Translations under genes and position numbers: made by a program | From: an uncultured Gemmatimonadota bacterium | GTDB taxonomy: Bacteria; JAAXHH01 | DNA length: 64,000 nucleotides | Assembly: GCA_951812955.1 (NCBI GenBank) | Contig: OX638340.1 | Span: 2,496,001 to 2,560,000 of the forward strand | Direction: 5' to 3' | The notes under the pieces: generated by a model | The model's database searches: none | Seen by the model: only the letters and a program-made list of their open reading frames with translations | Told to the model about the DNA's origin: nothing | Shown here: positions 37,870 through 58,843 of the stretch, piece by piece | Layout: each line of letters opens with the position of its first letter | How positions within the stretch are numbered: position 1 is the stretch's first letter

Positions 37870-37921
37870 GCTCCAATTTATGTCGTCGTTCTCTCATTCC
37901 ATGTAATTGCCAACCCATTTC

Positions 37922-39509: not shown

Positions 39510-39651
39510 TTGTTGAGTCATCGACCTTGATCCTCCAGATTGCGACGTTTCCAGTCTATCGGTGGAATACCGGTTGTCCCGCTCAGAATCCATGGTCTTC
39601 GACGTATTTGGCATCAGACCGTAGCCCGGCACCGGCCGGCGTCTATATCGT

Positions 39652-40540
39652 CTACCGGCCCGTCACTTCGATTCGATTCCGGATGCCACGCGTGTAAGTC
39701 AGATGCCCGCGTCGGTCAATCCAGATCCCTTCGACGTGAGGCAAATCATCCAGTAACCGCTTTGAATTCTCGACTCCCATGACGTACGTCGCAGTCGCCA
39801 GGGCGTCCGCCGTCATGGCGTCCGGGGCGATGACCGTGGCGCTGAGCACGTGGTTCGATGAAACCCCCAGCCGTGGATTGAGAATGTGAGCGATACGAGG
39901 GCCCTGGTGCAGTCTATAGTTCTCATAGTCTCCTGCCTTCGCAATGGCCTCGTCTTCGAGTTCGACCATGGCGCATAGTGCATCCATCCGAGCGGTATGG
40001 TGAACGTATCCCGATGCGCCACAGGCGAGTAAGCTCGAGCCATCACAGGGCAAAGATGTCTCCTCCGGCCGAAACCAGGCCACATCGGACCCGGTGGTCC
40101 CGCAACGCCCCGACCGCCCGATCCACCATCTTGCCGATCTCCCTGATCCCGCCATCGGCTTCGAGGGCGACGAGCAATCGAACGTTGTTGCACACGGGAC
40201 AACGAAGATCCTCCTGTACCTCGTAAACGTACCCTACAGGATCGCCCTGTTCACCGAAAATCACGTAGCGGTCATATTCCCGAAAGTCCTCGTGCTTCCG
40301 GGATTCGGCCATGTGGAACGTAACCGAAACAAACTCCGAAACTGTCGGTTCATCGAGCGGTGGAAACAGGTTGGACATGCCGGCTAGCTCGTTTGACATC
40401 CTGTAAAGCGACGGGTCGGATCCGACTACATCGGTTCCGCCGGATCCCATGAGATAGATGAGATTCACGGCCACGACTACGGTGCCTGCTCCGGCGATCA
40501 ACACCACCGCCATTCGACTACGTTTCAAAAACTGCGCCAT
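39652..40540 (-). pseudogene. Decayed FMN-binding-domain::ApbE fusion, formed by an internal deletion plus a frameshift (two overlapping ORFs, 40043-40540 and 39652-40155).
   Basis: The first ORF begins like the FMN-binding protein at 50779-51396 (TM helix, …EDLRCPVCNNVRLLVALE). It then jumps at 'DGGI' into sequence that aligns with the middle of ApbE at 49708-50709 (GGIAKGYGLDRMAHVLRNRHIRCGLISAGGD versus GGIREIGKMVDRAVGALRDHRVRCGLVSAGGD). That ORF stops after DIFAL. The ApbE C-terminal half (…YENYRLHQGPRIAHILNPRLG…ADALATATYVMG…) continues in another frame. Confidence 0.65.
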
Positions 40541-40582
40541 AGGTAAGTCACCCGAATGGACGTCTGAAGAACGTCGGAAACG

Positions 40583-43027: not shown

Positions 43028-43040
43028 GATCGGGTGCTCC

Positions 43041-45503
43041 CTACGGTTCCAGGACAAGAAAGTTGACCGACTTGAAGACGCGCTGATCAGCGTGCCGGTC
43101 CGTCAGCGTCACGGTCAGCACATACTCCCCGGCTTCGAGATCCGTGGTGTCCATCGCGGTGTATTCAGCCTCTTCCGCTGAACTCCCCTCGCCTTCGAAG
43201 AAGGACATCACAGTCTGCATGTCGTCCGGCCTTCTGGCCCTGCGGTTCCTCAGTGCGGGCATGCCCAGGGGCGTGATTTCGTAAAGTGTCTCGTAGGAAG
43301 TGCGTCCGGCGTTGCCTAAATCCAGGTTGTACAATTCGTAGTAAACGTAAACGGGGTTTCCCCGAATGTAGAGCCGTCCCGGATTGGGCGTGATATTCAA
43401 CCCCTTGCGCACAAAGGGGCCCTGTACGCCTGACGGCGTGATGAGGGTGGCCAGCTTGAGATCGCTGATGAGCAGGTCGCGGCCGCGGTAGTCGGACAGC
43501 GTGACTGGCTTGCGATACACTCCGACCCGGCTCGTTGTCTCGTCCCGCACCTGGACTGCCAGCGTGAAACTACCCGACGGCGCGACAACGCTTTCAGGCA
43601 GGGTATACACCGGAACTTTCACGTTGCTTTCAGCCATCATACGCTTCGGCCTGTCGAAGGGACCGAAACCGAACTCGTGGGTGAACTGGGGGCTCATGGT
43701 CGAATCACGCAGGGTGACCAGGTGCGCGAGCCGGGTGCTGTTACCCCTGCCGTCCGAGACATCGCCGAACTGCCACACGGGGATGCTGTAGGACAGGTCC
43801 AGTTCCGTCGCGCCGTTGTCAGCCCTGTAGCTTACGGCGTCGAAGGCATATTCGAGTGGTTCTCCCCCGAAGTCGTGCAGGAATTCCTCGGGACTGCGCT
43901 TGATCAGGTTCTCGGCAACTCGTTGAGGATGATGGGTATCGTTTCGACGCATCAACTCGAAACCCGTGATGTCACCAAACGAATCCCCACCTTCATAGAT
44001 TGTCTGAAGTGGATAATCGAATTTCCCACCGCCCATCTGGTCCACGAAAAACAGTTCAAGATTATGCTGTACGTAAACCCAGCTTTCGACCTTGTACGAT
44101 TCTCCGACCAGACGTTTGAGTAACTCGAATGGATTGCTCTCCGACGAGCTCCCCCAGAGATCCACCGATCCCAAATCGAATCCCTGGAGCTGCATGATCT
44201 CCTCATCCAACAACGCCACCGGATCTCCCCTGCCCACCCGCAACACGTAGCCGGACTGCATATTCCGCACGCGTATTGCGTCCACGGCAGGAATCGCCGA
44301 CGGCTTGAAAACGGAAAAGGTGTTCCCATGCCTGCGCAGCAAGAAGTTGCTACGGTCATCCGGCGTACCGTATCGAACGTGAATCTCCCCGCGGCGGTCA
44401 AAGGGATACTGGCCCTCTGAGAAATGATTGCGGGCGTACAGTACGCGCCGGTAGTGTTCCACCAGGCGCTCGTTTTCGACGGTGGCCGGATTGGAATCCC
44501 GTGCGTTCCAGAAGGTCTGCCACAGCGCGTCGCGTTCCGGTCCTTCCACAGCCTCCCAGGTCTTCAATTCATCGGGAGGCGCGACATGTCGCAGGTCCCG
44601 GTACACCGCCTGCTCATCGGGATCGAGACCCGATATATAGGTCTCCAGGGCTTCCTGCAATCGATCGAACCCCCGTTCAGTCGAACCCGAAAGCATGCTG
44701 AACTGAAGCTGCAGGGTCCTGACCTCGTCCGCGACGGCATCTCCTGATTCTTCGACCAACTGTCCCAGGAGTTCAGCACCTATTTCGAACGCTTCGGCAC
44801 GAAGACACACATTGGTAAACCGCTCGAAGGCCCGACGGTGTTTGGGGTTTACCCGGTACTGGTTGAAATAGGCGGCTATCGCTTTTTCGTAGTCCGGCAA
44901 CGGGGGACTTTCATAACATCGTCCCAGTTGATAGTAGGCGTCCTCATGGGATGGATTCAGCTCTACGACCTTGAGGAAATACGTCCTGCCATCCCGGTCG
45001 CTGCCCACGATGGTATCTACTTTTTTATCATTCATGAAGGACATGCCCAGGTAGTACTGGGCGTCCGCGTTGTCCGGATCCAGGCGGATCGCGGTACGCA
45101 ACGCGTTGCGGGCATCCAGCTTTCTGTTTTGCAACTTCAGGTAGGTCTTCCCCAATCCGATGTGACCAGGCGCCCATTTTTTGTCCTGCCGCACTGCGCT
45201 CCTGAACGAACTCAACGCCTCACGGTAGTCGCCCAATTCATACCGCGCCATTCCGAGCCAGTAGTGGGCGGGCGCCGAATCCCCGTCAGCCTTGACGGCC
45301 ATTAGGAAGTACGGCAGCGCTTCCGCGTATCGTCCCTGTTGGTAAAGTGATTTGCCTTTTTCGTGGGCTGGCAGATCAATATCGGATACGGCCGATTGCG
45401 GCGGGGAAGTCCAGGTCTGGGAATGGCCGGGTAAACTCAGTGCAAGCGCGGCGATTGTAAGAAGCAGGCGGACGTACACGTAGTGCCTCTTTGGACGAAT
45501 CAA
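43041..45503 (-). CDS. Secreted TPR-repeat protein with a possible GWxTD-family C-terminal region.
   Basis: It has a signal peptide and several TPR units (AHYWLGMARYELGDYREAL, GHIGLGKTYL, AQYYLGMSF). It has a segment FDRRGEIHVRYGTPDD that resembles the (GWxTD)RG-x-IY-x-YG-x-PD block. The family call is from memory. Confidence 0.6.
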   Translation of the reverse strand: MIRPKRHYVYVRLLLTIAALALSLPGHSQTWTSPPQSAVSDIDLPAHEKGKSLYQQGRYAEALPYFLMAVKADGDSAPAHYWLGMARYELGDYREALSSFRSAVRQDKKWAPGHIGLGKTYLKLQNRKLDARNALRTAIRLDPDNADAQYYLGMSFMNDKKVDTIVGSDRDGRTYFLKVVELNPSHEDAYYQLGRCYESPPLPDYEKAIAAYFNQYRVNPKHRRAFERFTNVCLRAEAFEIGAELLGQLVEESGDAVADEVRTLQLQFSMLSGSTERGFDRLQEALETYISGLDPDEQAVYRDLRHVAPPDELKTWEAVEGPERDALWQTFWNARDSNPATVENERLVEHYRRVLYARNHFSEGQYPFDRRGEIHVRYGTPDDRSNFLLRRHGNTFSVFKPSAIPAVDAIRVRNMQSGYVLRVGRGDPVALLDEEIMQLQGFDLGSVDLWGSSSESNPFELLKRLVGESYKVESWVYVQHNLELFFVDQMGGGKFDYPLQTIYEGGDSFGDITGFELMRRNDTHHPQRVAENLIKRSPEEFLHDFGGEPLEYAFDAVSYRADNGATELDLSYSIPVWQFGDVSDGRGNSTRLAHLVTLRDSTMSPQFTHEFGFGPFDRPKRMMAESNVKVPVYTLPESVVAPSGSFTLAVQVRDETTSRVGVYRKPVTLSDYRGRDLLISDLKLATLITPSGVQGPFVRKGLNITPNPGRLYIRGNPVYVYYELYNLDLGNAGRTSYETLYEITPLGMPALRNRRARRPDDMQTVMSFFEGEGSSAEEAEYTAMDTTDLEAGEYVLTVTLTDRHADQRVFKSVNFLVLEP

Positions 45504-45625: not shown

Positions 45626-46297
45626 TTACGCGGCCTCCGTCACGATCCGTCCGTCGAAGAGCCTGATGGTCCGGTGGGCGTGGTCGGCCAGCGCCTGGTC
45701 GTGGGTCACCATGATGATGGTCGTGCCCGCCTCGTTGAGGCCGTTGAGCAGTTCCATCACCTCGGCGCCGTTGGCCGAGTCCAGGTTACCCGTCGGCTCG
45801 TCCGCCAGGATCAGCCTGGGGTTGCCGATGACCGCCCGCGCCACGGCCACGCGCTGCTGCTGGCCGCCGGATAGCTGCTGCGGGAAGTGGTTCCGGCGGT
45901 GGGGGATCTGCATGTGCTCCATCGCCGCGTCCACCCGTTCCTTGCGCTCCTGCTTCGACGTGCCCAGGTAGATCAGCGGCAGTTCGATGTTCTCGTACAC
46001 GGTCAGCTCATCGATCAGGTTGAAGCTCTGGAAGACGAAGCCTATGTTGGCCTTGCGCAGGTTGGCGCGCTGCCGCTCGGAGTGGCCGGACACTTCCTGG
46101 TCCAGGAAATGGTACTCCCCGCCCGATGGATTGTCGAGGAGACCGAGGATGTTGAGCAGGGTGGACTTGCCGCAGCCCGAGGGTCCCATGACCGCCACGA
46201 ACTCGCCTTCGTCCACGGCCATGGTCACATCGTTCAGCGCCGTCGTCTCTACCTCTTCGGTCGCGTAGAGTTTCTTGAGATGTTCTGTCCTGATCAT
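45626..46297 (-). CDS. MacB/LolD-type ABC ATP-binding protein (cassette B), a near-identical paralog of 38148-38822.
   Basis: The motifs are the same. DNA identity to the cassette-A ATPase is high from about codon 10 to the stop and ends abruptly at both gene ends. The gene has backbone-like GC and sits at the edge of low-GC DNA. Confidence 0.85.
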   Translation of the reverse strand: MIRTEHLKKLYATEEVETTALNDVTMAVDEGEFVAVMGPSGCGKSTLLNILGLLDNPSGGEYHFLDQEVSGHSERQRANLRKANIGFVFQSFNLIDELTVYENIELPLIYLGTSKQERKERVDAAMEHMQIPHRRNHFPQQLSGGQQQRVAVARAVIGNPRLILADEPTGNLDSANGAEVMELLNGLNEAGTTIIMVTHDQALADHAHRTIRLFDGRIVTEAA

Positions 46298-46446
46298 GGT
46301 GCGCTCCCGTAGTGTGGTAATACTCCGTATCCACGCATGCCATTTCGGAATCGTTCCTAATATCAAAGTAGCAAATGAAGAGGGTTGCAATTCCAGGTCG
46401 GAGAGATTAACTCCATAGATTGTGCGACTACGTTCATGCTGGAGAA

Positions 46447-48864
46447 TCACTCATACCTGAGCGCATCTACCGGGTTCAACGGTGCTTCTTTTGTAACATG
46501 GAAGGCAATCGTAGCGATGATTACTAACAGAATCCCCATGCTTACCAAGATGTAGAGGCTAAGGGGTGGAGAAACTCGATATGCGAAATCTTGTAACCAA
46601 ACGGCAGTAACCAAGTACGCCAACGGCCACGCTACCAGATTGGCGATCGCTGCCATAACTACAAACTGTCTAGACAGCAACTGAGTCAATTTCATAACTG
46701 TAGCACCCAGGGTCTTGCGTATGCCTAATTCCTTCGTTCTCTGTTTTGTGGTCAGGGAGACCAGGTTGAAAAGTCCCAGGAATGTCAAGATAGTAGCTAA
46801 GATGGTACAGACACCTATAAGCGAACCTAGACGTTTCTCCGGTACGTAAAGTCGATCAATATCGTCCTCCAAGAGGGAATAGATAAATGGAATTTCAGGA
46901 AAATAAGACTGCCAGGTAAGATCTAGGTAACTTAACGCAGATTCCATTTTCCCATCCTGAAAGCGCACCATCATGTGTTCGCCATTACCGTTCGTGAAAA
47001 CCATCGGTTCAACAGGCTGATAAGACGACCGGAAGTGGGCATCCGCAACGACACCTACAACCCTGCCTCGTTGGGTGATCTGAGGGTATACGATATCTAT
47101 CGTCTGGTCTACTGCTGACACTGGAGAAGTCCAACCTAGGTGGCGTACTGCCGTTTCGTTGAGAACAAGCTCGATTACGGGCAAAGGCCCAAAAGTCGAA
47201 TATGTAGCAAGACTCCTGTGCCTCAAAAAGCGTCCGTGTACCAGCTGTAAACCCAGTGTGTTTATGTAATCGTGCTCAACGCCCACAAATCGTACGGATC
47301 TGGAATTCCTCAGACTGTTTCCTGCCCGAGTTCGAACCATCCCATCACCCATTGTACCACGGGCAGGTTCAAGTGCCGGCACATAAGTTGAGAATGAAAC
47401 GCTGAGTACATCTGGCGATCTCAACATATCGTTTTTGAATCCGCTAGGTGGAACTAGTATTCCGCCTGGGAAGAAGCCTGTTATCAGGGGTACATTGACT
47501 ACATTTGATTCGTCAAAACCCTGGGGTTTGGTCAACATGTATTGAATCTGGATGTAGACCACGCAGGTGCTGATAATCAGAATAGTGGAGAGAGAAAACT
47601 GGATGATGATGAGCATCCGTTTCACCAGTGGAAAGTCCACTGAATGGCTGATTCTGTTTCCAAGAGAAAAGAGAGGGTGTACTCCTGACATAACCAAAGC
47701 CGGAAATCCTCCTGAAACGACTCCAACGATTATCGCAACGACAACTATCCCAAGCCAGATTCCAAAGTCTTCAGTAACGCCAAAAGAAAGCGTTTTACCT
47801 GTCAGCCAATTAAATGATGGCAGTGCAAGATAGGTCAAAATGAGAGCTAAAAACAAAACCAACATCACCATGGTTAAGGATGCAATCATATGCTGCCTGA
47901 TAATCTGAATTCGATCAGCACCGAAAATCTTAATCAAACCCACTTCCTTCATCTGATCAGCCGAATGAACCATAGACAGATTGACAAAATTGATTGAAGC
48001 GATGAGCAACAAGAAGATCGCACCTGAAATGAGCGCAAAGATGTAACTCACACTGCTATTCACCTCGAGTTCATTCAAAAGGCGGGAACGAAGGTGAATC
48101 TCCGTTAGTGGTTGAAGTATGAAACTATACTCCCGGATCCACGCGCTGTTGCTAGGTTTTACCGTTGATTCAAAATACCGCTGAAACTTGTCTTCGAGAA
48201 TTGAAGCCTGGTTACCTTCGTTCAACCGGACGTAGGTGTAATAGTCGGGACGCGACCAGTTGTCAATGTAGGATAGTTCATTGCCGAAACTCAGGAAGAA
48301 CCCAGCCTCGAAATGGGAGTTGACCGGGAAATCCTCCATTATCGCGGTAACGGTAAAATCCCATGTGTTGTCGGCTTGCAACACCTTACCGATGGGATCT
48401 TCCTCGCCAAAGTACTTTCTGGCGACTGACTCTGATATAACGACCTTGCCTATGCCATCCAACGCGTTGGTTTTGTTCCCCTTTACAAGTGGTATGGTAA
48501 AGACATCAAACAAGGAGGCTTCGGTCCAGTATACCTTATCTTCGTAAAAAGCACGATCACCGTACTGCATTAGCCAGATGGCCCTGGCCGCCCTTAAACG
48601 AACAGTACTTACAACTTCAGGAAAGTTCAGCTCAAGGGAACCTGAGGCGGCACCTGGAGTTCGGGCATTGGTGCCGTCAATCAATCGGAAGATCTCGTTG
48701 GCGTGTTCGTGGTGAGAATCGTATTTCAGTTCTTCCTGGATATACATCAGGGTTAAAATACACATAGCCATCCCGACAGTTATTCCGCTGATGTTTAATA
48801 TGGTATTGGATTTCTGCTTTAATAGTGCACGGGTGGAGATTTTCAGGTGGTGGGGTAGTTCCAT
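46447..48864 (-). CDS. MacB-like ABC permease with duplicated FtsX domains (cassette B, low-GC).
   Basis: It is 805 aa with the same architecture and conserved blocks (SADQMKEVGLIKIFGA, QRTKELGIRKTLGAT, NPVDALRYE). Confidence 0.85.
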   Translation of the reverse strand: MELPHHLKISTRALLKQKSNTILNISGITVGMAMCILTLMYIQEELKYDSHHEHANEIFRLIDGTNARTPGAASGSLELNFPEVVSTVRLRAARAIWLMQYGDRAFYEDKVYWTEASLFDVFTIPLVKGNKTNALDGIGKVVISESVARKYFGEEDPIGKVLQADNTWDFTVTAIMEDFPVNSHFEAGFFLSFGNELSYIDNWSRPDYYTYVRLNEGNQASILEDKFQRYFESTVKPSNSAWIREYSFILQPLTEIHLRSRLLNELEVNSSVSYIFALISGAIFLLLIASINFVNLSMVHSADQMKEVGLIKIFGADRIQIIRQHMIASLTMVMLVLFLALILTYLALPSFNWLTGKTLSFGVTEDFGIWLGIVVVAIIVGVVSGGFPALVMSGVHPLFSLGNRISHSVDFPLVKRMLIIIQFSLSTILIISTCVVYIQIQYMLTKPQGFDESNVVNVPLITGFFPGGILVPPSGFKNDMLRSPDVLSVSFSTYVPALEPARGTMGDGMVRTRAGNSLRNSRSVRFVGVEHDYINTLGLQLVHGRFLRHRSLATYSTFGPLPVIELVLNETAVRHLGWTSPVSAVDQTIDIVYPQITQRGRVVGVVADAHFRSSYQPVEPMVFTNGNGEHMMVRFQDGKMESALSYLDLTWQSYFPEIPFIYSLLEDDIDRLYVPEKRLGSLIGVCTILATILTFLGLFNLVSLTTKQRTKELGIRKTLGATVMKLTQLLSRQFVVMAAIANLVAWPLAYLVTAVWLQDFAYRVSPPLSLYILVSMGILLVIIATIAFHVTKEAPLNPVDALRYE

Positions 48865-49707
48865 AACTGGCCTACAGATACTTAGTAAATGGTTCTAAGA
48901 GGGTTGTGATTAACGTCGAAGGGGCAGTTGAAAGTCTATAACTGCCTGTACGTTTAAACTCGTCCTCCGGTTTGATCAGCCCCAGACGTTCGCCGAGTGT
49001 TTTGGACTCGTCCACCACTGGCATTCAGCGAGGAGAGCATTTCCGTTGTCGGTGCGTGGAGCGTCGTTTGTTTTTTAACCTTGATGAATTCAATACCCAG
49101 ACGAAGTCGGTCAATCAACTCTTCCAACTGCTTGATTTGAATAGGCTAATAGAGGAAGTCACGGCGAAGGCTTCACTGGCAATATCGCGACTTTGATTCA
49201 GGTAGTTAATGTTGTCGTACGCATCTTAGTCTCCATGTGCGCTGTCAGGTTGGGTCTGTGACGGATTTTGTGTTACTGACTTTATCATGTTAAGGGCACT
49301 TTGTCTTCGTACATGATGATGAACTTGCTGGTGGCGGCCGTCCAGTTGGCGATGGGCCGTGTCTACCTTCGGGCCAGGTAGAGCAGTTTCCTGGCTACCC
49401 CGTCGGTGGGGAAGGCGCCGCCGCGCTATGGTCACCCCCAGTCTGCATGAGCACGTTCACCGCCCGTTACAATTCTGCTTCACATTGCATGGCGGCCAGC
49501 AATAGACTGGCAAAAGACGGTCAAAGGACAGGCGTAAACTTGTCGCTCTGAGTGCTATCCTTTACATAAACCTCTTCGACTCAGTCGTCTTCCACGGCTT
49601 CTTTATTCAGTCGACGTTTTCATCAAGCCCTTTAGATCCTCGTCGGTCTGTCTTGAAGCTACCGTGTATTTAACACCGCTCCCTTGTCATGAAGTACGAC
49701 CCACTCG

Positions 49708-50709
49708 TTAATTGACAATCTGCAATCTATTCTGGATCCCTCTTGTAAAAATAAACTGTCCATGCTGATCAATCCAGATCCCCTCGACGTATGGCATATC
49801 GTTCAGCAATCTCTGAGAACTTTCGATACCCATAACATAAGTCGCTGTGGCAAGCGCATCCGCTATCATTGCGTCGGGAGCGATAATCGTGGCGCTATGC
49901 ACGTGATCCGTCGAAGTCCCAAGTCGAGGATTGAGTATGTGTGTAATACGGCGACCTTGATTGATTTTGTAGTTTTCATAACCACCCGACGTCGCAACCG
50001 CCTCATCTTCGATTTCGACTGTGGCGCACAATGTATTGGGATGGTATGGAGACCGGATACCAATACGCCAAAGACGTTCAGGTTCTGGCCTTCCCATGGC
50101 AAGAACATCCCCACCTGCAGATATCAACCCGCATCTAATGTGGCGGTTTCGTAATACGTGAGCCATTCGATCCAATCCGTAACCTTTTGCTATTCCGCCA
50201 AAGTCTACCCCATAACCAGACGAAGCAATTCGTACTTTCTGTTCTTGCACTTGCAACTGATTAAAGTCTACCAGTTCGAGCATTTGCCGTAAGCTTCGAC
50301 TTGACGGATCACAATTATAAAATCCCCAGTGGTACATAATCGGTAGAATTGTCACATCGAAGGCACCATCTGTAATCTCGCCGATTCGTCTTGCTGTAGT
50401 CGCGACCTTGATAAAGTGGGGTGTTACGCCATGCCAAAGCCCATACATGTTGTTTACATGCGTAAGTTCACTGGTATTACGATAGAGGCTTAGCAGGCTG
50501 TCAATTTGAGCTAAAGCATCGAAGGCATCATAAATTGATTCTTTACTGTACTCGCATTCCTTGATTACAAGTTCTACTTTCGTCCCCATATGAATCTGAT
50601 GACGACGAACAAGCCTTTGCTTGTCTGACAATCCTGCGCCAAAATTGTATGGCACAAGTAACATTGCCGATGAAAGGCCGACCGATTTTATGAAATTGCG
50701 TCGCTTCAT
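49708..50709 (-). CDS. apbE: FAD:protein FMN transferase ApbE (flavin transferase), with a Tat/lipoprotein-type signal.
   Basis: It has an N-terminal MKRRNFIKSVGLSSAML signal. The ApbE family blocks are present (HMGTKVELVI…, GAFDVTI…, VDFGGIAKGYGLD, ISAGGDV, ATSGGYENY, PRLG, ADALATATYVMG). It is 333 aa. Confidence 0.85.
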   Translation of the reverse strand: MKRRNFIKSVGLSSAMLLVPYNFGAGLSDKQRLVRRHQIHMGTKVELVIKECEYSKESIYDAFDALAQIDSLLSLYRNTSELTHVNNMYGLWHGVTPHFIKVATTARRIGEITDGAFDVTILPIMYHWGFYNCDPSSRSLRQMLELVDFNQLQVQEQKVRIASSGYGVDFGGIAKGYGLDRMAHVLRNRHIRCGLISAGGDVLAMGRPEPERLWRIGIRSPYHPNTLCATVEIEDEAVATSGGYENYKINQGRRITHILNPRLGTSTDHVHSATIIAPDAMIADALATATYVMGIESSQRLLNDMPYVEGIWIDQHGQFIFTRGIQNRLQIVN

Positions 50710-50778
50710 AGGGGCTATGCTATGATGGAATCTAGGACCATCTTTGTTTTCAAAAACAAGGCTACGTACAGAAAGCCC

Positions 50779-51396
50779 CTAACCTCGATGGATATGCCTA
50801 AGTCTATTGAGAGCATCAACAATATGAATCGAGCTTTTGGTAGCACCTGTGATTCCGTCGATATTTTCGCCTAATACGTAGAAATGTAGGTTCGGTTTCG
50901 ACTTAAATTGCCTCAGAAACCTCGTTTCATCCTCAACAGATAGTGGTTCACCGGAGAGTTCAAGGGGTTCAAGCACTCTGATATCATGGAGCCGACCCAA
51001 GTCATCGAGTGCGACGAGCATTCGGACGTTATTGCAAACAGGACATTTGAGATCCTCCTGTATTTCGTAGACGTAGCCAACAGTGTCGATTCGTTCGTCA
51101 AACACCACATATCGATCGTAACCTCTGAATTTCTCGTGTTTGCTAGAATAGCTTTCAGAGAAAGCGGATATAGTGAATTCCCTTAAGATACGATCGTCAA
51201 GTGGTGGGAATATGTCGGATGAAGTAATCGAACCACTTCCCGATCCCAAGTTCGACACGTGTGAGTAAATCACATCGTCATCACATGAATGTCCGGATAA
51301 GTAGACTATATTGACCACAGCAATTACTACTCCGGTTATAAGAAACATGGTTCTTTGAATGAGTTTGAAATTTCGCATACTACAACCGAACTCCAT
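50779..51396 (-). CDS. Membrane-anchored FMN-binding domain protein (NqrC/RnfG/NosR-type FMN_bind), the predicted flavinylation substrate of ApbE.
   Basis: It has an N-terminal TM helix, a CPVCNN element and the flavinylation-type motif IDGITGATKSS near the C-terminus. Its 5' end lies 70 nt after the apbE stop. Confidence 0.75.
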   Translation of the reverse strand: MEFGCSMRNFKLIQRTMFLITGVVIAVVNIVYLSGHSCDDDVIYSHVSNLGSGSGSITSSDIFPPLDDRILREFTISAFSESYSSKHEKFRGYDRYVVFDERIDTVGYVYEIQEDLKCPVCNNVRMLVALDDLGRLHDIRVLEPLELSGEPLSVEDETRFLRQFKSKPNLHFYVLGENIDGITGATKSSIHIVDALNRLRHIHRG

Positions 51397-51515
51397 CTTC
51401 GTTTGAGCAGAAGAGGCCGAAGTTTGACTGGTTGTTCCTTGGGAGCCACGACATAGATTTGGGATTTCACTGACTGAACAGAATGTTGAGTTGAGGGGAG
51501 GCCGAGCCAATACAC

Positions 51516-51911
51516 TTATCTAAGGCGGAAGCTCATTGGAAAGTAGAATTGCGCAGATATAGGCTTTCCTTCCTTAGTCGCTGGCTTGAAAATCATCATT
51601 CGTGCTTGCGACAGTGCAAGACTATCTAGTTCTGGATGGGTCGACGATTCTATGATCGAAACAGATTCCACCGTGCCATCTGCCTTAGATCTTAAGAGAA
51701 GTACAACATCGCCTTCATTGCTGTACTTATCCTGTGGCGTGGGTCTAAACAATAGTCGTGGAGACGTATCCCAATCACCCACTTTAGCTATAACTTCAGT
51801 GTCAACTTGGGTTTCTTCCACCGGCACACTATCGTTCTCTACATTTCTGTCGTTACTGCAGGAGATGACTAACGAAAAGAGTACAATCTGGGACAGGCTG
51901 AATCGAAGCAT
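51516..51911 (-). CDS. Lipoprotein with a TonB-C-like domain (cassette B).
   Basis: It has the lipobox LVISC. Its C-terminal domain reads EGDVVLLLRSKADGTVESVSIIESSTHPELDSLALSQARMMIFKPATKEGKPISAQFYFPMSF. Confidence 0.65.
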   Translation of the reverse strand: MLRFSLSQIVLFSLVISCSNDRNVENDSVPVEETQVDTEVIAKVGDWDTSPRLLFRPTPQDKYSNEGDVVLLLRSKADGTVESVSIIESSTHPELDSLALSQARMMIFKPATKEGKPISAQFYFPMSFRLR

Positions 51912-52022
51912 TTGTGGAGCCCTTTCTGTCATATGAGGTCGATTTCTGAACGCGAGGTAAATTCTGATTCATGTTCTAACTTTCAATGTGATTCAAAATC
52001 ACCAGTATAAGTTAAAACCTGA

Positions 52023-53735
52023 TCAATCGGGGCTATTGACCCGAGAAGTAAATCGAAAATTGTATTTAAATATCGTATTTTGGGGGACGATGAGTCGTGT
52101 TCCCATAGTGGGCATTAAACGAAACCTGCCTACAGACTCTAAGGCGATACTATCCAGTGCCGGATGTGCTGATGGTGTCTTTGTCCAAATCGAATCTACG
52201 ATACCATTTGAGTCGAAAAGTACGTTCACTGCAATTTCCATTTCGTCAAGATGACCGTACTCAAGAGGGAATGCACGACTCGTAGCCGTACCGAGGTGCA
52301 AGATTAGAGGTTCTTCATACGATGGCACAACATAGTCGTCAATGATCCCGTCGGTCACTAGTCGAATGTATTGGTCATATCCTTCCAAGGATCGCCAGGA
52401 ATCATCTTTTGTGAATCTGGCGATACTCTGTGCAAAAGATGTAAAAGGGAGGTCACCGATACGGCGAGGATGGGACATCATGTTGACGGATTGATTGTTG
52501 GCGTACGATCTGATAAAAAGACTCGATTCATCTATCGGCATGGAAGACACGTTATCGAAGTATCGTGTGAAAGTTGACCGGTCCGACCCGTTGGAATCAT
52601 GGGCTTCGGTGGACGGCATGTTAGTGAAGTATTGAGAGATATCAAATCGGTCTGACCCGCTGGATGCCTGCACTTCGCGATAGGTAGTTGTAGTCAGATA
52701 GTACTCCACATTTGAAACGTAGAATACGGAAATGGTCGCATCATGAGACCGGACGTAGTCTGATATACCACGCAAGGCTGTTTCACCGGCGAAATCACCT
52801 ACGACTGGAACGATCAAGTTCCTCCCGTGCAACTTCTTGACGACGTCAAATGCACTATCATCAGCAAGGAAGTTGGCTTGCTCCCCACTTATCGTTTCTG
52901 CAAGAATCAACTCCCGCAGACTCGGGAAATTAAAGGTTGCATCCCCCGGTGTTCCCAGATCGTACTGGATGTCTAACTGGCTCCTGAAGAAAGCCTGATA
53001 GACTCGTTCGACAGCTTTCATATCTTCCATCGAGTCTATGCCATACGAATGTAAATGGGACTTGATGACCCGGAGATTTCGCTCGTAGAGTTTTACATCG
53101 GGATCTATTCCGTCGAAATATGCGATCAGCGTTGCAACAGATGATTCACTTCGAGACCAGGGCCGGACCGGTCCTCCCTTAAATATCTCGGCCAGGTAGG
53201 AGAGATTCCGGTTCAATGGTTTGCTGAGCAGCCTAGACAGGAATTCAGCACTGTCGCTGGACTGAGCGAAGAGGGACTTGTAGATCAGGTGCAACAGCAT
53301 GTTATCGCGACGAATGTCAACCACGAAAGCCATGTGCGGCCTGGTCTCGGCGATGTAGGTAAAATTCTGTTCGGGGCCGACACCCACATAAACGCCACCG
53401 GAAACGTGCCGTTCGCGTAGTACGGCAAATGGATGCAGGTAAGAAGATTCGTTTGAGGTGAAATTGGTTGAATGAAAGGAGCCACCCGTCTCCGACAGTT
53501 CTCTAATCAGGTTCGAGAAGGCTGGCGTGGACAGTGAGTCCGGGAGGGCACCTGCTCTTGGATATGGCTTTACAGTCCTCTTGTTAGACCAATCAGAAGG
53601 ATTGTAACACTGGACTGCAAACAACATCACGACAACACCTGCCGTTATCCATGTTGTTGTTTTCCATATAACCATATCCGAGGATTTCCAAGCAGCTAAA
53701 GATTGACCTAAGTATTGTGAAAGTCTCTCAGCCAC
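52023..53735 (-). CDS. Large membrane-anchored protein of unknown function with a C-terminal TonB-C-like domain (cassette B).
   Basis: It has an N-terminal TM helix and a roughly 380-aa domain I could not assign (…GVYVGVGPEQNFTYIAETRPHMAFVVDIRRDN…IVPVVGDFAGETALRGISDYV…). The C-terminus, PSYEEPLILHLG…GIVDSIWTKTPSAHPALDSIALESVGRFRLMP…FKYNFRF, matches the TonB-C pattern. Confidence 0.58.
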   Translation of the reverse strand: MAERLSQYLGQSLAAWKSSDMVIWKTTTWITAGVVVMLFAVQCYNPSDWSNKRTVKPYPRAGALPDSLSTPAFSNLIRELSETGGSFHSTNFTSNESSYLHPFAVLRERHVSGGVYVGVGPEQNFTYIAETRPHMAFVVDIRRDNMLLHLIYKSLFAQSSDSAEFLSRLLSKPLNRNLSYLAEIFKGGPVRPWSRSESSVATLIAYFDGIDPDVKLYERNLRVIKSHLHSYGIDSMEDMKAVERVYQAFFRSQLDIQYDLGTPGDATFNFPSLRELILAETISGEQANFLADDSAFDVVKKLHGRNLIVPVVGDFAGETALRGISDYVRSHDATISVFYVSNVEYYLTTTTYREVQASSGSDRFDISQYFTNMPSTEAHDSNGSDRSTFTRYFDNVSSMPIDESSLFIRSYANNQSVNMMSHPRRIGDLPFTSFAQSIARFTKDDSWRSLEGYDQYIRLVTDGIIDDYVVPSYEEPLILHLGTATSRAFPLEYGHLDEMEIAVNVLFDSNGIVDSIWTKTPSAHPALDSIALESVGRFRLMPTMGTRLIVPQNTIFKYNFRFTSRVNSPD

Positions 53736-53771: not shown

Positions 53772-55055
53772 CTAACAACTTCTACCACCATTACAGTAAC
53801 AACCTACATAGCCCCACACATATGCATCCCCACAGTCATCATAATAACTACAATATACGCGATGGGCCAGGACCGCATAGGCAAAGGAGAAGGGCAACGC
53901 GCACTGCAACCCCACGTGGACGATTCGATCGAGCATCCAGACTATCACGGGTAGGGCTGGACCGGATGCCGGAACCAGACCCCAAGAGGACAGGAGCGTG
54001 CCGGGTTTCGTGATTGTCCACATCGGCGCGAGGATGAGGGCCAGGATGAATCCGGCCTCGATAATCTGGAGGCGTATGCGCTGTTGCTGGCTCGCCACGA
54101 AACGCTGGGCAATCAGTAGGCATCCTGTTAAGATAACAACGAGGAGAGGAAACATTGGAACGGGAATGGGCTCAACTATGCGGACGACGAACTGCGCAAT
54201 CTCATTATTCCAACCATGGGTGATGCTCAGTAAGTAGATCGAATGTAAGACTATCCACACAAAGAGAGGCGTCAGGATGAACAATGCTTTTTTTCGTAAC
54301 CATTCTCCAAAGACAGACGAACTTGGAAAAACAGTTAATATCTGAAAGATAAGAACAGTTTCCAGGATTGTTGCTAATACGACGATGTATATACTGAGCG
54401 ATAGTAACCAAACCGGCCATCCTGCGATCATGGGATGAAAGGCAGGAGACGATGTGAGCGCCGTAGCGAGGAAGAGCAACGCGCATCGAAAGGCGATGAC
54501 GTTTAGATGACTGCGGAATCCCATCCAAGTACCAAAACCTAACAGCACGATCGGGAAGATCAGAAAGGGTCCTCTTTGGAACCAGGTCATCTCCGCGACA
54601 CCCATCACAATCTCCTGCTGATCAACCTGTAGGGTGTAAGGTACCTCTTCGATCTCCTCAAGTGTCATGATACCGGTATGTATCCGATCTTCGCGAAGCC
54701 AGACGATTTCGATACGTTCTCCGGGTTGACTTTGCAAACGTGCCTGGAAATAGGCTTCTGGTCGTGATCTCAGGTCGATTCCATTTACCGATATGATCCG
54801 GTCGCCCGACTGTATTCCTGCCAGGTCGGCCGGACTTCCGTTCTCGATCTGTACTGCGATGATACCTTCGTCTTGGCGAATCCGGACGAGATGAAACCAC
54901 GTACCTTCCTGTAGATTGCTAACGGCGCTCTTCGTCAACCCCGGCGTTTGTATCATCTCGCTACCAAAAAATTGAATGCCGGGCGACCAGTGTTCGATCT
55001 GCGTGAATCGAACAAGTGTCCACGCCACCAGACCCAATTGCATGCATAGCAGCAA
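53772..55055 (-). CDS. Polytopic membrane protein with a PDZ domain.
   Basis: It has an N-terminal TM helix. The PDZ domain reads GIIAVQIENGSPADLAGIQSGDRIISVNGIDL. It is followed by roughly 6 predicted TM segments with no HExxH, and it is low-GC. Confidence 0.6.
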   Translation of the reverse strand: MLLCMQLGLVAWTLVRFTQIEHWSPGIQFFGSEMIQTPGLTKSAVSNLQEGTWFHLVRIRQDEGIIAVQIENGSPADLAGIQSGDRIISVNGIDLRSRPEAYFQARLQSQPGERIEIVWLREDRIHTGIMTLEEIEEVPYTLQVDQQEIVMGVAEMTWFQRGPFLIFPIVLLGFGTWMGFRSHLNVIAFRCALLFLATALTSSPAFHPMIAGWPVWLLSLSIYIVVLATILETVLIFQILTVFPSSSVFGEWLRKKALFILTPLFVWIVLHSIYLLSITHGWNNEIAQFVVRIVEPIPVPMFPLLVVILTGCLLIAQRFVASQQQRIRLQIIEAGFILALILAPMWTITKPGTLLSSWGLVPASGPALPVIVWMLDRIVHVGLQCALPFSFAYAVLAHRVYCSYYDDCGDAYVWGYVGCYCNGGRSC

Positions 55056-55614: not shown

Positions 55615-57696
55615 GTGTTCGTGAAGGAATATCGCATCGAAAACATCAGAAACATATGCCTCGCGGGCCACGGGGGGAGCGGCAAGACCTCCCTGGCGGA
55701 AGCCATGCTCTTCAACGCCGGCGCCACGAACCGCCTGGGCAGCGTGGACGATGGCAACACGGTTTCCGACTACCGCGAGGAAGAGATCGAGCACCGCATT
55801 TCGATGAACCTCACACCCCTTCACTTCGAGTGGAACGAACAGAACCTCCACGTGATCGACACCCCGGGATATTCCGATTTCACCAGCGAGGTGCACTGCG
55901 CGATGCGCGTCTCGGACAACGTGGCTATCGTGGTCAAGGCCATCGAAGGCATCGAGGTGGAGACCGAACGCGCCTGGGAATATACAGAACAGTACGGCCT
56001 GCCCCGCATGGTGGTGGTCAACCTGCTGGATAAGGAACACGCCGACTTCTACGACGTGCTGGGCCGCATCCAGGAACGGTTCGGCACGCAGGCCGTCCCC
56101 CTGCAAATCCCCATCGGCGAAGGCGAAGGCTTCGCGGGCGTTGTCGACCTGGTCGCCATGGAGGCGGTGACCTCTGAAGACGGCAAGGACAGCCGCGGCG
56201 AAATCCCCGGCGATCTCGCTGACCTGGCGGAGGAGTACCGTGAAAAGCTCATGGAGGCGGTGGCGGAATCCGACGATGGGCTGCTCGAGGTTTACTTCGA
56301 AGAAGGCGCATTGTCCGATGAGCAGCTCCTGGAAGGACTGCGAAAGGGTGTGCGGGAAGGCGCCATTTACCCCGTCATGGCGACATCGGCTACGCGGAAT
56401 ATCGGGGTCTCCGGCGTGATGGACGCGGTGGGAGCGTACCTGGCCTGCCCTGCGGACCGGCCGCCGGTTACGGTCACCCCTTCGGGAGGAGACGAAGAAA
56501 TCGCCCTGGATTCCGATCCATCCGGGCCCCTGGCGGCCCTTGTTTTCAAGACGGTTTCCGAAGCCCATATCGGAGAACTCACCTATTTCCGAGTGTATTC
56601 CGGCGAGATCAAGCACGGCGGCGACGTCTACAACTCGTCCAAGAACACGGCGGAGCGGTTCGGTCAGATCTACCAGACGAACGGCCACGAGCGGCATGAA
56701 CTGAACGTCATCCGCGCCGGCGAGATCGGGGCGACGGTCAAGCTGAAGGATACCCACACCGGCGACTCGCTCAGTACGAGACAGAAAACCTTCGACCTGG
56801 AGTGGGTGAACTTCTCCGAGCCCGTGGCGAACGTGGCCGTCCTGCCAAAGAGCAAGGAAGACGAGGAGAAGATCAGCACCGGCCTCTCCCGGCTGCACGA
56901 GGAAGATCCCTCCTTTACCTTCCAGTTCAACAGCGAGATCAAGCAGCTGATCCTGGCCGGGGCCGGCGAAATGCACCTGGACCTCATCGTCGAGCGGCTC
57001 AGCCGCCGTTTCGGCGTGGAAGTCGAGATGGTGCAGCCGCGCATTCCCTACCGCGAAGCAATCAAGGGCAAGTCCGAGGCCCAGGGCCGGTTCAAACGGC
57101 AGAGCGGAGGTCGCGGACAGTTCGGCGACGTCTGGCTGCGCGTGGAACCCAGGCATCGCGGCGACGGTTACGAATTCGACAACGGCATCGTCGGCGGAGC
57201 CGTCCCCAGCCGCTTCATTCCGGCGGTGGACAAGGGCATCCAGGAGGCCATGGTGGAGGGCGTGATGGCCAAGTATCCCGTGGTCGATCTGAAGGCCACG
57301 TTGTACGATGGCTCCTTCCACACGGTCGATTCATCCGAAATGGCCTTCAAGGTCGCCGCGTCCATGGGATTCAAGAAGGCCTTCATGGAAGCCCGGCCCG
57401 TCCTGCTCGAACCGATCTACGAAGTGGACGTGGTCGTCCCGGAAGACTATATGGGCGACGTCATGGGAGATCTTTCCAGCCGGCGCGGACGCATCCTGGG
57501 CATGTCGCCGCGGGGGAGCAACCAGGTGGTGCGGGCCGAAGTGCCCCTGGCCGAACTGTACAGGTACTCGACCGTGTTGCGATCGATAACGCACGGGCGC
57601 GGCAGCCACGCACGGAAATTCGTCCGCTACGAGGAAATACCGAAGGAAATCGAGAACAAGGTCATCGAAGAGGCCAAGACCCAGGAAGAGGACTGA
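55615..57696 (+). CDS. EF-G family translational GTPase paralog (EF-G2-like; not in the str operon context).
   Basis: It has the G1 variant GHGGSGKTSL, DTPGYSDF and NLLDK, then the EFG_II/III/IV/C domains (…PVLLEPIYEVDVVVPEDYMGDVMGDLSSRRGRILG…). It is 693 aa. Confidence 0.88.
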   Translation: MFVKEYRIENIRNICLAGHGGSGKTSLAEAMLFNAGATNRLGSVDDGNTVSDYREEEIEHRISMNLTPLHFEWNEQNLHVIDTPGYSDFTSEVHCAMRVSDNVAIVVKAIEGIEVETERAWEYTEQYGLPRMVVVNLLDKEHADFYDVLGRIQERFGTQAVPLQIPIGEGEGFAGVVDLVAMEAVTSEDGKDSRGEIPGDLADLAEEYREKLMEAVAESDDGLLEVYFEEGALSDEQLLEGLRKGVREGAIYPVMATSATRNIGVSGVMDAVGAYLACPADRPPVTVTPSGGDEEIALDSDPSGPLAALVFKTVSEAHIGELTYFRVYSGEIKHGGDVYNSSKNTAERFGQIYQTNGHERHELNVIRAGEIGATVKLKDTHTGDSLSTRQKTFDLEWVNFSEPVANVAVLPKSKEDEEKISTGLSRLHEEDPSFTFQFNSEIKQLILAGAGEMHLDLIVERLSRRFGVEVEMVQPRIPYREAIKGKSEAQGRFKRQSGGRGQFGDVWLRVEPRHRGDGYEFDNGIVGGAVPSRFIPAVDKGIQEAMVEGVMAKYPVVDLKATLYDGSFHTVDSSEMAFKVAASMGFKKAFMEARPVLLEPIYEVDVVVPEDYMGDVMGDLSSRRGRILGMSPRGSNQVVRAEVPLAELYRYSTVLRSITHGRGSHARKFVRYEEIPKEIENKVIEEAKTQEED

Positions 57697-57802
57697 CCGC
57701 CGGGCGTCGGTACGGAGTAATATAATAGGTAAGGCGGGCCGTTCGGGCCGGCCGGAGTGACCGAGGCGGGCTGTTCGGGTCGCCACAGGGAAGCATGGAT
57801 AC

Positions 57803-58783
57803 ATGGAACCCTTACTGAAAGTTGAGAACCTTTCGACCCACTTCTTGACCCGCAACGGCGCGGTGCGGGCCGTGGACGACGTCAGTTTCGACGTGGCGGA
57901 AGGGGAAACGGTGGGCATCGTGGGGGAGAGCGGATGCGGCAAGAGCGCCACCGTGCTGTCCATCATGCGGCTCATCCCGAGTCCTCCGGGCCGCATCGTC
58001 AACGGCAACATCCTGTTCAGGCCGGGGGCCGACGAACCAGCGGTCGACCTGCGCAACATTTCGGAACGCGAAATGCAGAAAATCCGGGGCAATATCGTCT
58101 CCATGGTGTTCCAGGATCCGATGACGTCCCTCAACCCGGTGCTGACCATAGGATGGCAGCTGCGGGAACCCCTCCAGCTGCATCTCGGCCTCGACAAGAA
58201 AGAGGCCACGGACCGCAGCATCGAACTGCTGCAGATGGTCAACATCCCGAGCCCGGAACAGCGCCTCAACGACTACCCCCACCAGTTCAGCGGGGGCATG
58301 AGGCAGCGCGTGATGATCGCCATGGCCATCGCGTGCAACCCGAAACTGCTTATCGCGGACGAGCCGACCACGGCGCTGGACGTCACCATCCAGGCGCAGA
58401 TCCTGGAGCTGATGATGAAGCTGCAGGAAGAACTGAACATGTCCGTCGTCATCATCACCCACGACCTCGGGGTCGTGGGCGAGGTGTGCGACCGGGTGAT
58501 CGTCATGTACGCCGGCCGGATCATCGAATCGGGCCCGGTGGATACGCTGCTCGACGATCCCAAGCATCCCTACACGCACGGACTGCTCCAGTCCGTTCCC
58601 AAGCTCGGCGCCACGGTGAAGGAGCGCATGGAACCCATCGACGGGCTGCCGCCGAACCTGATCAACCTGCCTGCCGGCTGCCGGTTTGCGCCGCGGTGCC
58701 CCAGCCGATTCGATCTGTGCGGCGACGATCCGGATTTGAAGGACGTGGCGCAGGGACACGACTGCGCCTGCTGGCTGTACTGA
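57803..58783 (+). CDS. Oligopeptide/dipeptide ABC transporter ATP-binding protein (OppD/DppD family).
   Basis: It has Walker A GESGCGKS, the signature [14 protein letters not shown], and the C-terminal oligopeptide-family extension with Cys-rich CRFAPRCP. Confidence 0.88.
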
Positions 58784-58843
58784 CTCAGGCCGCACTAATG
58801 CCGGCTATACTGACTCAGACCGCATGCAATCCTGGAGGACGCG

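Follow-up and report, generated by a model that had tools for sequence, protein, structure and literature searches.

A decayed gene cluster possibly built around a secreted cysteine-rich peptide and a periplasmic flavin-thiol relay in an uncultured Gemmatimonadota bacterium

The stretch of DNA analysed here (the window) comprises 64,000 nucleotides of contig OX638340.1 from an uncultured Gemmatimonadota bacterium (assembly GCA_951812955.1). All positions are those of this 64-kb window, and L-numbers (L001 etc.) denote the relative loci compared with it. A cassette of six minus-strand genes at 45626-53735 (cassette 1) combines a MacB/FtsX-type ATP-binding cassette (ABC) transporter with an ApbE flavin transferase, an FMN_bind protein, predicted to carry flavin mononucleotide (FMN), and two proteins with TonB_C-type domains. 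Comparison with the relative loci suggests that cassette 1 is the remainder of a cluster built around a secreted cysteine-rich peptide, on which a periplasmic flavin-thiol relay would act and which a MacB-type pump would handle. We regard this interpretation, drawn from gene content and conservation, as evenly poised between right and wrong. The evidence that carries it is an invariant CxxC motif in the FMN_bind protein, a peptide gene in every complete locus of the relatives, and the persistence of a thioredoxin-fold partner in distant members of the FMN_bind subfamily.

The flavin genes, the cysteine-rich pre-peptide and the thioredoxin-like partner

Open reading frame (ORF) calling returned the six minus-strand genes that the initial annotation, made from the sequence alone, had listed for cassette 1. 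Pfam searches upheld its domain assignments, namely an ABC ATPase, a double MacB_PCD/FtsX permease, ApbE, FMN_bind and TonB_C. The cassette comprises the following features.

52023-53735, minus strand: DUF7790 protein of 570 amino acids with an N-terminal transmembrane helix, a Rossmann methyltransferase-like core and a C-terminal domain resembling the TonB C-terminal domain (CTD) (DUF7790, 2e-30)
51516-51911 or 51516-51932, minus strand: small TonB_C-domain lipoprotein; the likely start at 51911 gives MLRFSLSQIVLFSLVISC, with the lipobox read by eye
50779-51396, minus strand: membrane-anchored FMN_bind protein with CPVC (C118/C121) and the predicted flavinylation motif DGITGAT (T186)
49708-50709, minus strand: ApbE flavin transferase (Pfam ApbE, PF02424, 7e-72, 242.5 bits, profile positions 1-263 of 266)
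48865-49707, minus strand: non-coding gap with fragments of an HlyD/MacA-type membrane-fusion-protein gene at 48953-49172 and 49440-49601
46447-48864, minus strand: duplicated MacB_PCD/FtsX permease of 805 amino acids (MacB_PCD 5e-29 and FtsX 6e-18, each in two stretches)
45626-46297 (or the longer 45626-46450), minus strand: ABC ATPase (Pfam ABC_tran, 3.6e-35)

The ApbE protein is full length and 90% identical to that of L001. Its N-terminus, MKRRNFIK, is compatible with a twin-arginine motif when read by eye, in agreement with its earlier description as an ApbE with a twin-arginine translocation (Tat) signal. The target motif of ApbE has been defined as Dxx(S/T)GA(S/T) (PMC10339131). The protein thus has a full-length domain, a predicted export signal and a neighbouring substrate with DGITGAT, as expected for a member of the family. 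The FMN_bind assignment of this neighbour (PF04205) is marginal in Pfam (7.6e-5; 23.7 bits, with the cut-off at 22). It draws support from RnfG in a profile search (7zc6_G, 1.5e-5) and from an AlphaFold2 (AF2) model (pLDDT 71), which Foldseek matches to RnfG/NqrC structures (7zc6_G, 9eri_G, 4xhf) with a probability of 0.98-1.0. The ApbE target motif reported earlier is present as DGITGATKSS, and both D-G-I-T-G-A-T and C118-P-V-C121 are invariant across 24 close homologues. About 40 close homologues exist among 5.8 billion clustered proteins. Identity as an Rnf/Nqr subunit was rejected, as the NCBIfam rnfG models score only about 20 bits against cut-offs of 102-230 and neither the window nor any of the loci contains Rnf/Nqr genes.

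In the alignment with RnfG, the CxxC takes the place of 'SGYAGEV', and the model places it within the loop joining strands 105-114 and 124-131. In crystal structures of FMN_bind domains, the loop joining the first two strands bears a tyrosine that stacks on the isoalloxazine (PMC10339131). Because the CxxC sits in the loop that carries this tyrosine in solved domains, we infer from the model that both cysteines adjoin the flavin ring, as in flavin-dependent thiol oxidoreductases.

The relatives are uncultured marine bacteria and belong to 'Candidatus Latescibacterota' metagenome-assembled genomes (MAGs) and other MAGs of the genome collection. Every complete Latescibacterota locus carries, upstream of DUF7790, one or two genes for peptides of about 80 amino acids. 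These pre-peptides consist of a basic and hydrophobic N-region, a junction of the form W(D/N/K)VPxIG(I/V)Q(E/D)AxA, and a hypervariable core of 36-42 amino acids, which is mostly cysteine-terminated and contains all 6 or 8 cysteines. Between the close loci compared, the leader is 86-91% identical and the core just 42-53%, and this conserved leader with a variable core is the pattern of a peptide precursor. Two loci have tandem copies of the gene, and the peptides match no Pfam or NCBIfam family. The precursor expected of a ribosomal peptide cluster, whether bacteriocin-like or like those of ribosomally synthesised and post-translationally modified peptides, is thus found in the relatives, while the window keeps only its last 26 codons. 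The adjoining gene encodes a membrane-anchored thioredoxin-like protein of about 200 amino acids (AhpC-TSA/Redoxin, 3.5e-6, for that of L007), and its CxxC is kept in all of the eight cluster-linked proteins. The thioredoxin-like/FMN_bind pair and DUF7790 are candidate peptide-modifying enzymes, as are radical SAM/SPASM enzymes in the distant loci described below.

The gene set recurs in L001, L003, L004, L007, L008, L009, L012 and L017-L020, with 43-86% protein identity to the window genes. The thioredoxin-like, cysteine-peptide, DUF7790, TonB_C, permease, FMN_bind and ApbE genes stand together in L001, L003, L004, L007, L008, L009 and L017/L018; L012 is cut at a contig end. Two arrangements are found. 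Type A (window 45.6-53.7 kb, L001/L002 and L017-L020) runs DUF7790 (with TonB_C), TonB_C, FMN_bind, ApbE, permease and ATPase. Type B (window 38.1-45.5 kb and L003-L012) runs DUF7790, TonB_C, an optional TPR/GWxTD gene, permease, FMN_bind, ApbE, an optional adaptor or TonB_C-like gene and an optional ATPase. In type B, which is commoner, FMN_bind and ApbE lie directly downstream of the permease, followed by the ATPase gene in L003 and L004; this layout is hard to account for other than by a shared function. The view taken in the initial annotation, that the association is not accidental, is borne out by the neighbourhood survey, which finds the set in at least seven other Latescibacterota-type loci. 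The alternative that the genes have no functional link and are adjacent only through a rearrangement-prone island in one lineage is accordingly very improbable. The absence of cassette 2 (described below) from L017, insertion sequence (IS) genes in L018 and L020, and several deletions and pseudogenes would suit it, but gene set and order are kept at the above identities across at least seven species-level loci, and thioredoxin and FMN_bind genes remain paired in unrelated contexts where identity has fallen to 22-38%.

Distant FMN_bind members and the place of the transporter and TonB_C-domain proteins

A profile search of 1.84 billion representatives recovered about a dozen further members of the CxxC FMN_bind subfamily, all membrane-anchored, 175-206 amino acids long and 22-38% identical. 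All have a CxxC (mostly CPVC) and (I/V)(T/S)GA(T/S)K or a close variant. In total, the subfamily profile gave 229 hits at E<=1e-3 and 44 at E<=1e-10. A metagenome scan with a narrow FMN_bind alignment returned one locus, L026. In the six distant loci examined, the FMN_bind gene always adjoins the gene of a thioredoxin-fold CxxC protein (the thioredoxin match in L026 is weak, E 0.028), and a MacB transporter is absent from all six. Their contents are as follows.

L014, L016 and L023: radical SAM/SPASM protein, FMN_bind, Redoxin, a 76-80-amino-acid signal-peptide and cysteine-rich gene, beta-propeller protein and ApbE
L015: a set like that of L014, including an FGE-sulfatase-like gene, with no cysteine-rich gene seen
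L024: Redoxin and FMN_bind
L026: FMN_bind and a 766-amino-acid protein with CPGC

ApbE and a radical-SAM enzyme accompany the pair in four of the six (L014, L015, L016 and L023), and ApbE together with a cysteine-rich secreted peptide gene in three (L014, L016 and L023). The FGE-sulfatase-like gene is found in L014 and L015. Since the distant subfamily keeps the thioredoxin-fold partner and never MacB, the conserved core is predicted to be a flavin-thiol module formed by the CxxC FMN_bind protein and the thioredoxin-fold CxxC protein. The MacB pump, DUF7790 and the TonB_C proteins are additions of the Latescibacterota lineage.

This distribution runs counter to the function put forward in the initial annotation, an energised machine for flavin-based redox chemistry or flavoprotein handling. 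As a rival to the peptide interpretation, such a machine would have the MacB-type mechanotransmission pump directly energise or handle the periplasmic flavoprotein, with TonB_C proteins reaching towards the outer membrane, independently of any peptide. The type-B order, in which the flavin genes directly follow the permease and are themselves followed by the ATPase gene in L003 and L004, is what it would predict, and TonB_C lipoproteins are found with all three MacB-type permeases of the window. We nevertheless consider it unlikely, because the six distant FMN_bind loci lack MacB and always have the thioredoxin-fold partner, an intact ATPase is missing from several Latescibacterota loci, and every complete locus has a peptide gene.

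The clusters of L014 (8399-14878), L015, L016 and L023 belong to a different lineage (5.45-Mb genome) and have a giant Ser/Thr-kinase-GAF-sigma54 activator as cluster regulator. A very large TPR protein (>1,200 amino acids) is also present in the L014 and L016 clusters. Such a cluster resembles one for a peptide natural product, of a type that has not been described.

Regarding the transporter, Pfam identifies in cassette 1 both a MacB-type permease and its cognate ATPase. The permease resembles the ADOP family but does not reach membership (206.8 bits against the TIGR03434 cut-off of 622.3, NCBIfam), and its NCBIfam match to DarB, the darobactin export permease, is weak (91 bits, below cut-off). 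No TolC-like outer-membrane duct was found among the window ORFs scanned or the locus genes called; one may be encoded elsewhere in the genome. The cassette 1 ATPase is 93-97% identical to those of L001 and L003. Across both cassette types and species, the ATPases are 89-97% identical at the protein level, and the permease, FMN_bind and ApbE proteins of the two types 54-64%. Gene conversion or unusually strong constraint could be the cause of this ATPase conservation.

The small TonB_C lipoprotein matches Pfam TonB_C (1.4e-10, 42 bits) and NCBIfam tonB_Cterm (6e-13), and its gene adjoins DUF7790 in relatives too. With 131-138 amino acids, a lipoprotein-type N-terminus and no spacer, it departs from the architecture of a TonB transducer. 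Its candidacy as a bona fide TonB energy transducer was rejected, as it has no N-terminal transmembrane anchor followed by a proline-rich spacer, and ExbB/ExbD have no match among the window ORFs scanned. For the DUF7790 protein, the C-terminal TonB-like domain scores 18.6 bits, under the Pfam threshold. Structure prediction supports its earlier description as a large transmembrane protein with a C-terminal TonB-C-like domain at the fold level only: in the AF2 model (pLDDT 80.5), residues 484-563 match TonB CTDs with a Foldseek probability of 0.98-1.0 (9dc4_T, probability 1.0, TM-score 0.64; 9ddz, TM-score 0.68). The sole clear relative of the core is an uncharacterised Leptospira protein (6ulo_A, 8.5e-13), and the resemblance to methyltransferases is weak. 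DUF7790 appears to be extracytoplasmic, as it has a transmembrane anchor, is fused here with a TonB_C domain and weakly matches the NCBIfam model for LIC_10091 family lipoproteins. The family is large (over 3,400 hits, with Latescibacteria and Acidobacteria among the groups represented) and has an invariant GVGPEQN...DIRR. The distant DUF7790 contexts L021 and L022 (Blastocatellia-type) hold no transporter, flavin or peptide genes and are uninformative on its function, and DUF7790 is not mentioned in the literature searched.

A second rival is metal acquisition, in which the peptide would be a metallophore exported by MacB, the TonB_C proteins would take part in its re-uptake, and the flavoprotein and thioredoxin would reduce the bound metal, a step also proposed for P19/FTR1 and for PepSY-like flavinylated systems. 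Precedents for the individual parts exist: in P19/FTR1 clusters, a thioredoxin or else an FMN-binding protein is encoded beside an ABC transporter (PMC6083913; PMC8238504), 231 PepSY-like flavinylation clusters contain a TonB_C protein (PMC8238504), and PvdT of the pyoverdine system PvdRT-OpmQ is a MacB homologue exporting a siderophore from the periplasm (PMC5985334). However, no locus has a P19, FTR1, PepSY, TonB-dependent receptor or ExbBD gene, the TonB_C proteins are lipoproteins of 131-171 amino acids without the transmembrane and proline-rich regions of TonB, and a hypervariable core would be unusual for a conserved metal site. A role in metal acquisition therefore seems distinctly unlikely. 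Identity as a P19/FTR1 iron-uptake cluster was rejected outright, P19 (PF10634) and FTR1 (PF03239) being absent from the window ORFs scanned and from all locus gene lists.

Decay and strain variation of the island

Cassette 1 had been described as intact and tightly spaced, and neither description holds. ApbE and the permease are separated by 843 bp that contain no ORF of at least 80 amino acids. With the intact L003 adaptor as the tblastn query, the gap matches amino acids 105-158 and 224-297 (E 3.5e-8 and 1.5e-10); the adaptor gene is intact in L003 (HlyD_3, 1.4e-11), and the window has only these pseudogene fragments. The possibility that the gap is the remnant of an IS256-type transposase found no Pfam support and was rejected, the adaptor-gene fragments explaining the gap better. 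At the other end, homology breaks inside the peptide gene at 53858, where the following ORF is encountered.

53772-55055, minus strand: chimeric ORF of 427 amino acids, a fusion of a PDZ-HisKA_3 kinase, cut after ~401-416 N-terminal residues, with the final 26 codons of the cysteine-rich pre-peptide

The pre-peptide remnant occupies 53772-53852, and the junction lies at about 53853-53858. The chimeric ORF has PDZ hits in Pfam. By tblastn, it matches amino acids 1-416 of the 888-residue L001 kinase (82%) and amino acids 57-77 of the L001 peptide (90%), and its C-terminus ...CSYYDDCGDAYVWGYVGCYCNGGRSC matches the L017 and L001 peptides. Four strain contigs (L017-L020; L017 is GCA_001753035.1 MKWU01005730.1) align with the window at 99.4-99.8% DNA identity from 45.3 kb to 53858, where the alignment stops. 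Upstream of the break, L017, L018 and L019 have the thioredoxin-like gene and an 82-amino-acid gene, and L020 has only the latter, preceded by a transposase-like ORF. In L001, the order is elongation factor G (EF-G), PDZ-HisKA_3 kinase, two LuxR-type regulators, a 173-amino-acid protein, the thioredoxin-like protein, the 82-amino-acid peptide and DUF7790. In the window, EF-G is followed by the chimeric ORF, and about 4.8 kb is missing relative to L001. The sequence lost upstream of DUF7790 thus comprises the regulators, the thioredoxin-like gene and most of the cysteine-rich peptide gene, and this deletion is the reason why the initial annotation did not see them. Since the peptide, thioredoxin-like, regulator and adaptor genes are lost, the window copy probably no longer makes a peptide.

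The retention of the pump, FMN_bind and ApbE without the peptide gene would suit a third rival, in which the system serves resistance or immunity alone. A two-component system, the redox pair and an FtsX transporter like BceAB would detoxify disulfide-rich antimicrobial peptides of competitors or of the host, and the window would retain the immunity half. Transporters of the FtsX/MacB family do make cells resistant to peptide antibiotics and have sensor kinases as partners (PMC5985334), and PDZ-HisKA_3 kinases and LuxR-type regulators flank L001. Complete loci, however, always have their own peptide gene directly upstream, and the distant loci have biosynthetic-type neighbours (radical SAM/SPASM) and no transporter. 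We accordingly assign immunity alone a low probability.

A second, partly decayed gene set at 38.1-43.1 kb, which the initial annotation had read as a recurrence of the same genes, is indeed present; it is a paralogous cassette with another gene order, further decayed than cassette 1, and not a decayed duplicate of it. The protein identity of cassette 2 to cassette 1 is 55% for the permease, 57% for FMN_bind and 64% for ApbE. Its features are as follows.

43041-45503, minus strand: TPR and GWxTD-domain protein heading cassette 2 as in L004 (Pfam TPR; NCBIfam GWxTD_dom, 2.6e-13)
40583-43057, minus strand: duplicated MacB_PCD/FtsX permease of 824 amino acids (Pfam)
39652-40540, minus strand: pseudogene region with FMN_bind codons 1-116 (40127-40474) and ApbE codons ~163-325 (39658-40153, frameshifted)
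39015-39632, minus strand: divergent TonB_C-like protein in the place of the L003 adaptor gene, without a Pfam hit
38148-38822, minus strand: ABC ATPase (Pfam ABC_tran, 5e-36)

The TPR/GWxTD protein is 59% identical to the L004 homologue at the same position, and the permease 84-86% identical to those of L003-L012. An 844-bp deletion relative to L004 (10339-11182) removes ApbE residues 1-162 as well as FMN_bind residues 117-183, in which the flavinylation site lies; what is left of ApbE covers only positions 180-265 of the Pfam profile. The TonB_C-like protein is 88% identical to the L004 gene product at the same position and weakly resembles the TonB_C lipoprotein (48% over 19-28% of the length).

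L017, at 99.4% identity over cassette 1, is without the whole of cassette 2 (window 38092-43060) and has a divergent TPR/GWxTD allele (59-85% identity). The island therefore differs among strains. In L018 and L020, transposase genes lie upstream of the gene for the thioredoxin-like protein or the peptide. The island is a rearrangement hotspot, and both cassettes are decaying remnants in this strain-variable, low-GC region. The low-GC setting noted earlier was confirmed, with a GC content of 0.44-0.50 over 46-56 kb against 0.62-0.67 in the housekeeping flanks.

A complete ribosomal RNA (rRNA) operon (16S, tRNA-Ile, tRNA-Ala, 23S, 5S) stands at 32890-38039 within the low-GC, strain-variable island, convergent with the cassette 2 ATPase gene. 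In a third, partial related locus at 19077-24193, a TonB_C lipoprotein and a thioredoxin-like paralogue accompany a MacB-type permease and an ATPase; genes for FMN_bind, ApbE, DUF7790 and the peptide are absent from it. The island is bordered by ordinary chromosomal genes and is therefore itself chromosomal, neither plasmid nor phage. The remaining features of the window are given below.

19077-19769, minus strand: ABC ATPase of the third locus, 47% identical to the cassette 1 ATPase
19914-20597: thioredoxin-like paralogue of the third locus, its CxxC replaced by HSPF
20682-21176: TonB_C lipoprotein of the third locus
21794-24193, minus strand: third duplicated MacB/FtsX permease
24324-28412: two tandem paralogous 624-amino-acid proteins, each with regions 2 and 4 of an extracytoplasmic function (ECF) sigma factor at the N-terminus, followed by a C-terminal part of about 440 amino acids
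28443-29441: DUF4932 protein, following the two ECF sigma-factor-type proteins
29504-30394: DUF2268/GldB-like putative zinc protease, following the DUF4932 gene
1-19000 and 55615-64000: flanks of ordinary chromosomal genes (GC 0.57-0.67)
Flank genes: MnmE, MnmG, two MoeA paralogues, aminopeptidase P, ArgJ, CarB, TPR-peptidase, ComEC, EF-G and an Opp-type ABC ATPase

Proposed mechanism, related systems and implications

In the mechanism proposed for complete loci, the pre-peptide would be exported by Sec, and the Tat-exported ApbE would attach FMN to Thr186 of the periplasm-facing FMN_bind protein. Electrons would then pass from the peptide thiols to the thioredoxin-like CxxC, from there to the CPVC of the FMN_bind protein and on to FMN, with a terminal acceptor such as O2 taking them up. 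The thioredoxin-like partner would thereby form or reshuffle the peptide disulfides in the manner of the sulfhydryl oxidases Erv and QSOX. Such an action would require no membrane electron-transfer partner, which fits the observation that none is encoded in about 15 loci. The MacB-type pump would pick up the folded peptide in the periplasm and expel it; alternatively, it may provide the producer with self-immunity. MacAB-TolC offers a parallel, as it exports the enterotoxin STII, which is delivered by Sec, oxidised by Dsb and taken from the periplasm (PMC5985334).

Several observations weigh against the peptide-relay interpretation. The available stretches of L007, L008, L009 and L012 contain no ATPase gene and that of L004 is broken, so that pump function is uncertain in many loci. 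The adaptor gene is intact in L003 only, and there is no TolC-like duct among the genes called in the loci. The Sec cleavage site at AxA was read by eye, and the hydrophobic stretch lies about 15 residues away from it, an unusually long distance for a signal peptide. No electron donor or acceptor is encoded, and periplasmic thioredoxins of the AhpC/TSA-Redoxin type are usually reductants. The FMN_bind model has a pLDDT of only 71. Two distant peptides have odd numbers of core cysteines, 9 in L023 and 7 in L016, and with radical-SAM/SPASM and FGE-sulfatase-like enzymes in the distant loci the chemistry may exceed disulfides. DUF7790 and the TonB_C proteins have no role in the mechanism, and all source sequences are metagenomes or MAGs.

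A broader proposal goes beyond the window. FMN_bind proteins flavinylated by ApbE, with a CxxC close to the flavin, and their membrane-anchored thioredoxin-fold partners may constitute an unrecognised periplasmic system for generating or editing disulfides, functionally analogous to Erv/QSOX, dedicated to hypervariable secreted cysteine-rich peptides of uncultured marine bacteria and wired in Latescibacterota to a MacB-type pump that would release the peptide. We advance this tentatively and think it more doubtful than the interpretation of the cluster itself. The literature searched describes no CxxC-bearing FMN_bind protein, no pairing of one with a thioredoxin-fold protein and a cysteine-rich peptide, and no insertion of such genes into a MacB operon. 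Nor does it contain a coupling of ApbE/FMN_bind with a MacB-type transporter and TonB_C proteins, in keeping with the initial annotation, which was aware of no description of this coupling.

P19/FTR1 iron-uptake clusters (C. jejuni 1649-1656 and homologues) resemble the present one in having an ABC transporter, with two permeases and an ATPase, alongside a periplasmic thioredoxin, whose place an FMN-binding protein takes in other phyla. The permeases of these clusters are of the FtsX type. They differ in that the loci described here have no P19, FTR1 or Cj1660-like gene and have both a thioredoxin-like and an FMN_bind protein, plus ApbE and a peptide gene. The nearest published systems include the hybrid thioredoxin-like/flavinylation clusters (ApbE and DUF3570 together with thioredoxin-like and DUF4266 proteins, with or without DsbD; Meheust et al. 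2021, PMC8238504). In these, too, ApbE is encoded together with a flavinylated protein outside the cytosol, a thioredoxin-like protein and a small cysteine-containing protein that is secreted, and thiol-flavin electron transfer has been proposed for them (PMC8238504). In contrast, the predicted flavinylated protein here is, instead of DUF3570, an RnfG/NqrC-type FMN_bind protein with its own CxxC, DsbD and DUF4266 are absent, the small protein is hypervariable with 6-8 cysteines, and the set also includes a MacB pump, DUF7790 and TonB_C proteins.

On the transport side, MacAB-TolC/STII and the DarBCD (darobactin) exporters share a MacB_PCD/FtsX permease, an ATPase and, ancestrally, an HlyD-type adaptor with the present loci. 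The substrate proposed here would, like STII, be small, Sec-delivered, disulfide-bonded and periplasmic. Unlike those exporters, the permease is a single-chain duplicated protein similar to ADOP, the adaptor is mostly lost and no duct lies among the genes called; and unlike for STII, which relies on the general Dsb system, the folding factors are proposed to be dedicated and flavin-linked. The FMN_bind protein shares with RnfG/NqrC the fold, a single N-terminal membrane anchor and the S/TGAT threonine, the ApbE target, which is predicted here. It differs in standing alone, without Rnf/Nqr partners, and in having an invariant CPVC where those subunits have the GYGG-type flavin-stacking loop. 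With the sulfhydryl oxidases Erv/ALR, Ero1 and QSOX, the likeness is a functional analogy only, in the proposed order of thiols, thioredoxin-fold CxxC, flavin-proximal CxxC, flavin and acceptor. The folds are unrelated, and FMN would be held through a phosphoester bond, in contrast to their non-covalent flavin adenine dinucleotide.

The family-level lead rests wholly on comparative inference from uncultured organisms. If it is true, extracytosolic flavinylation, so far tied to respiration, iron reduction and electron transfer, would gain a thiol-disulfide role on secreted peptides, exerted by an FMN_bind domain that has acquired a CxxC. One branch of the large, mostly orphan duplicated MacB/FtsX permease family would acquire a testable substrate. 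Uncultured marine bacteria would then hold an unmined class of hypervariable disulfide-rich peptides, together with a dedicated apparatus for their folding and export.

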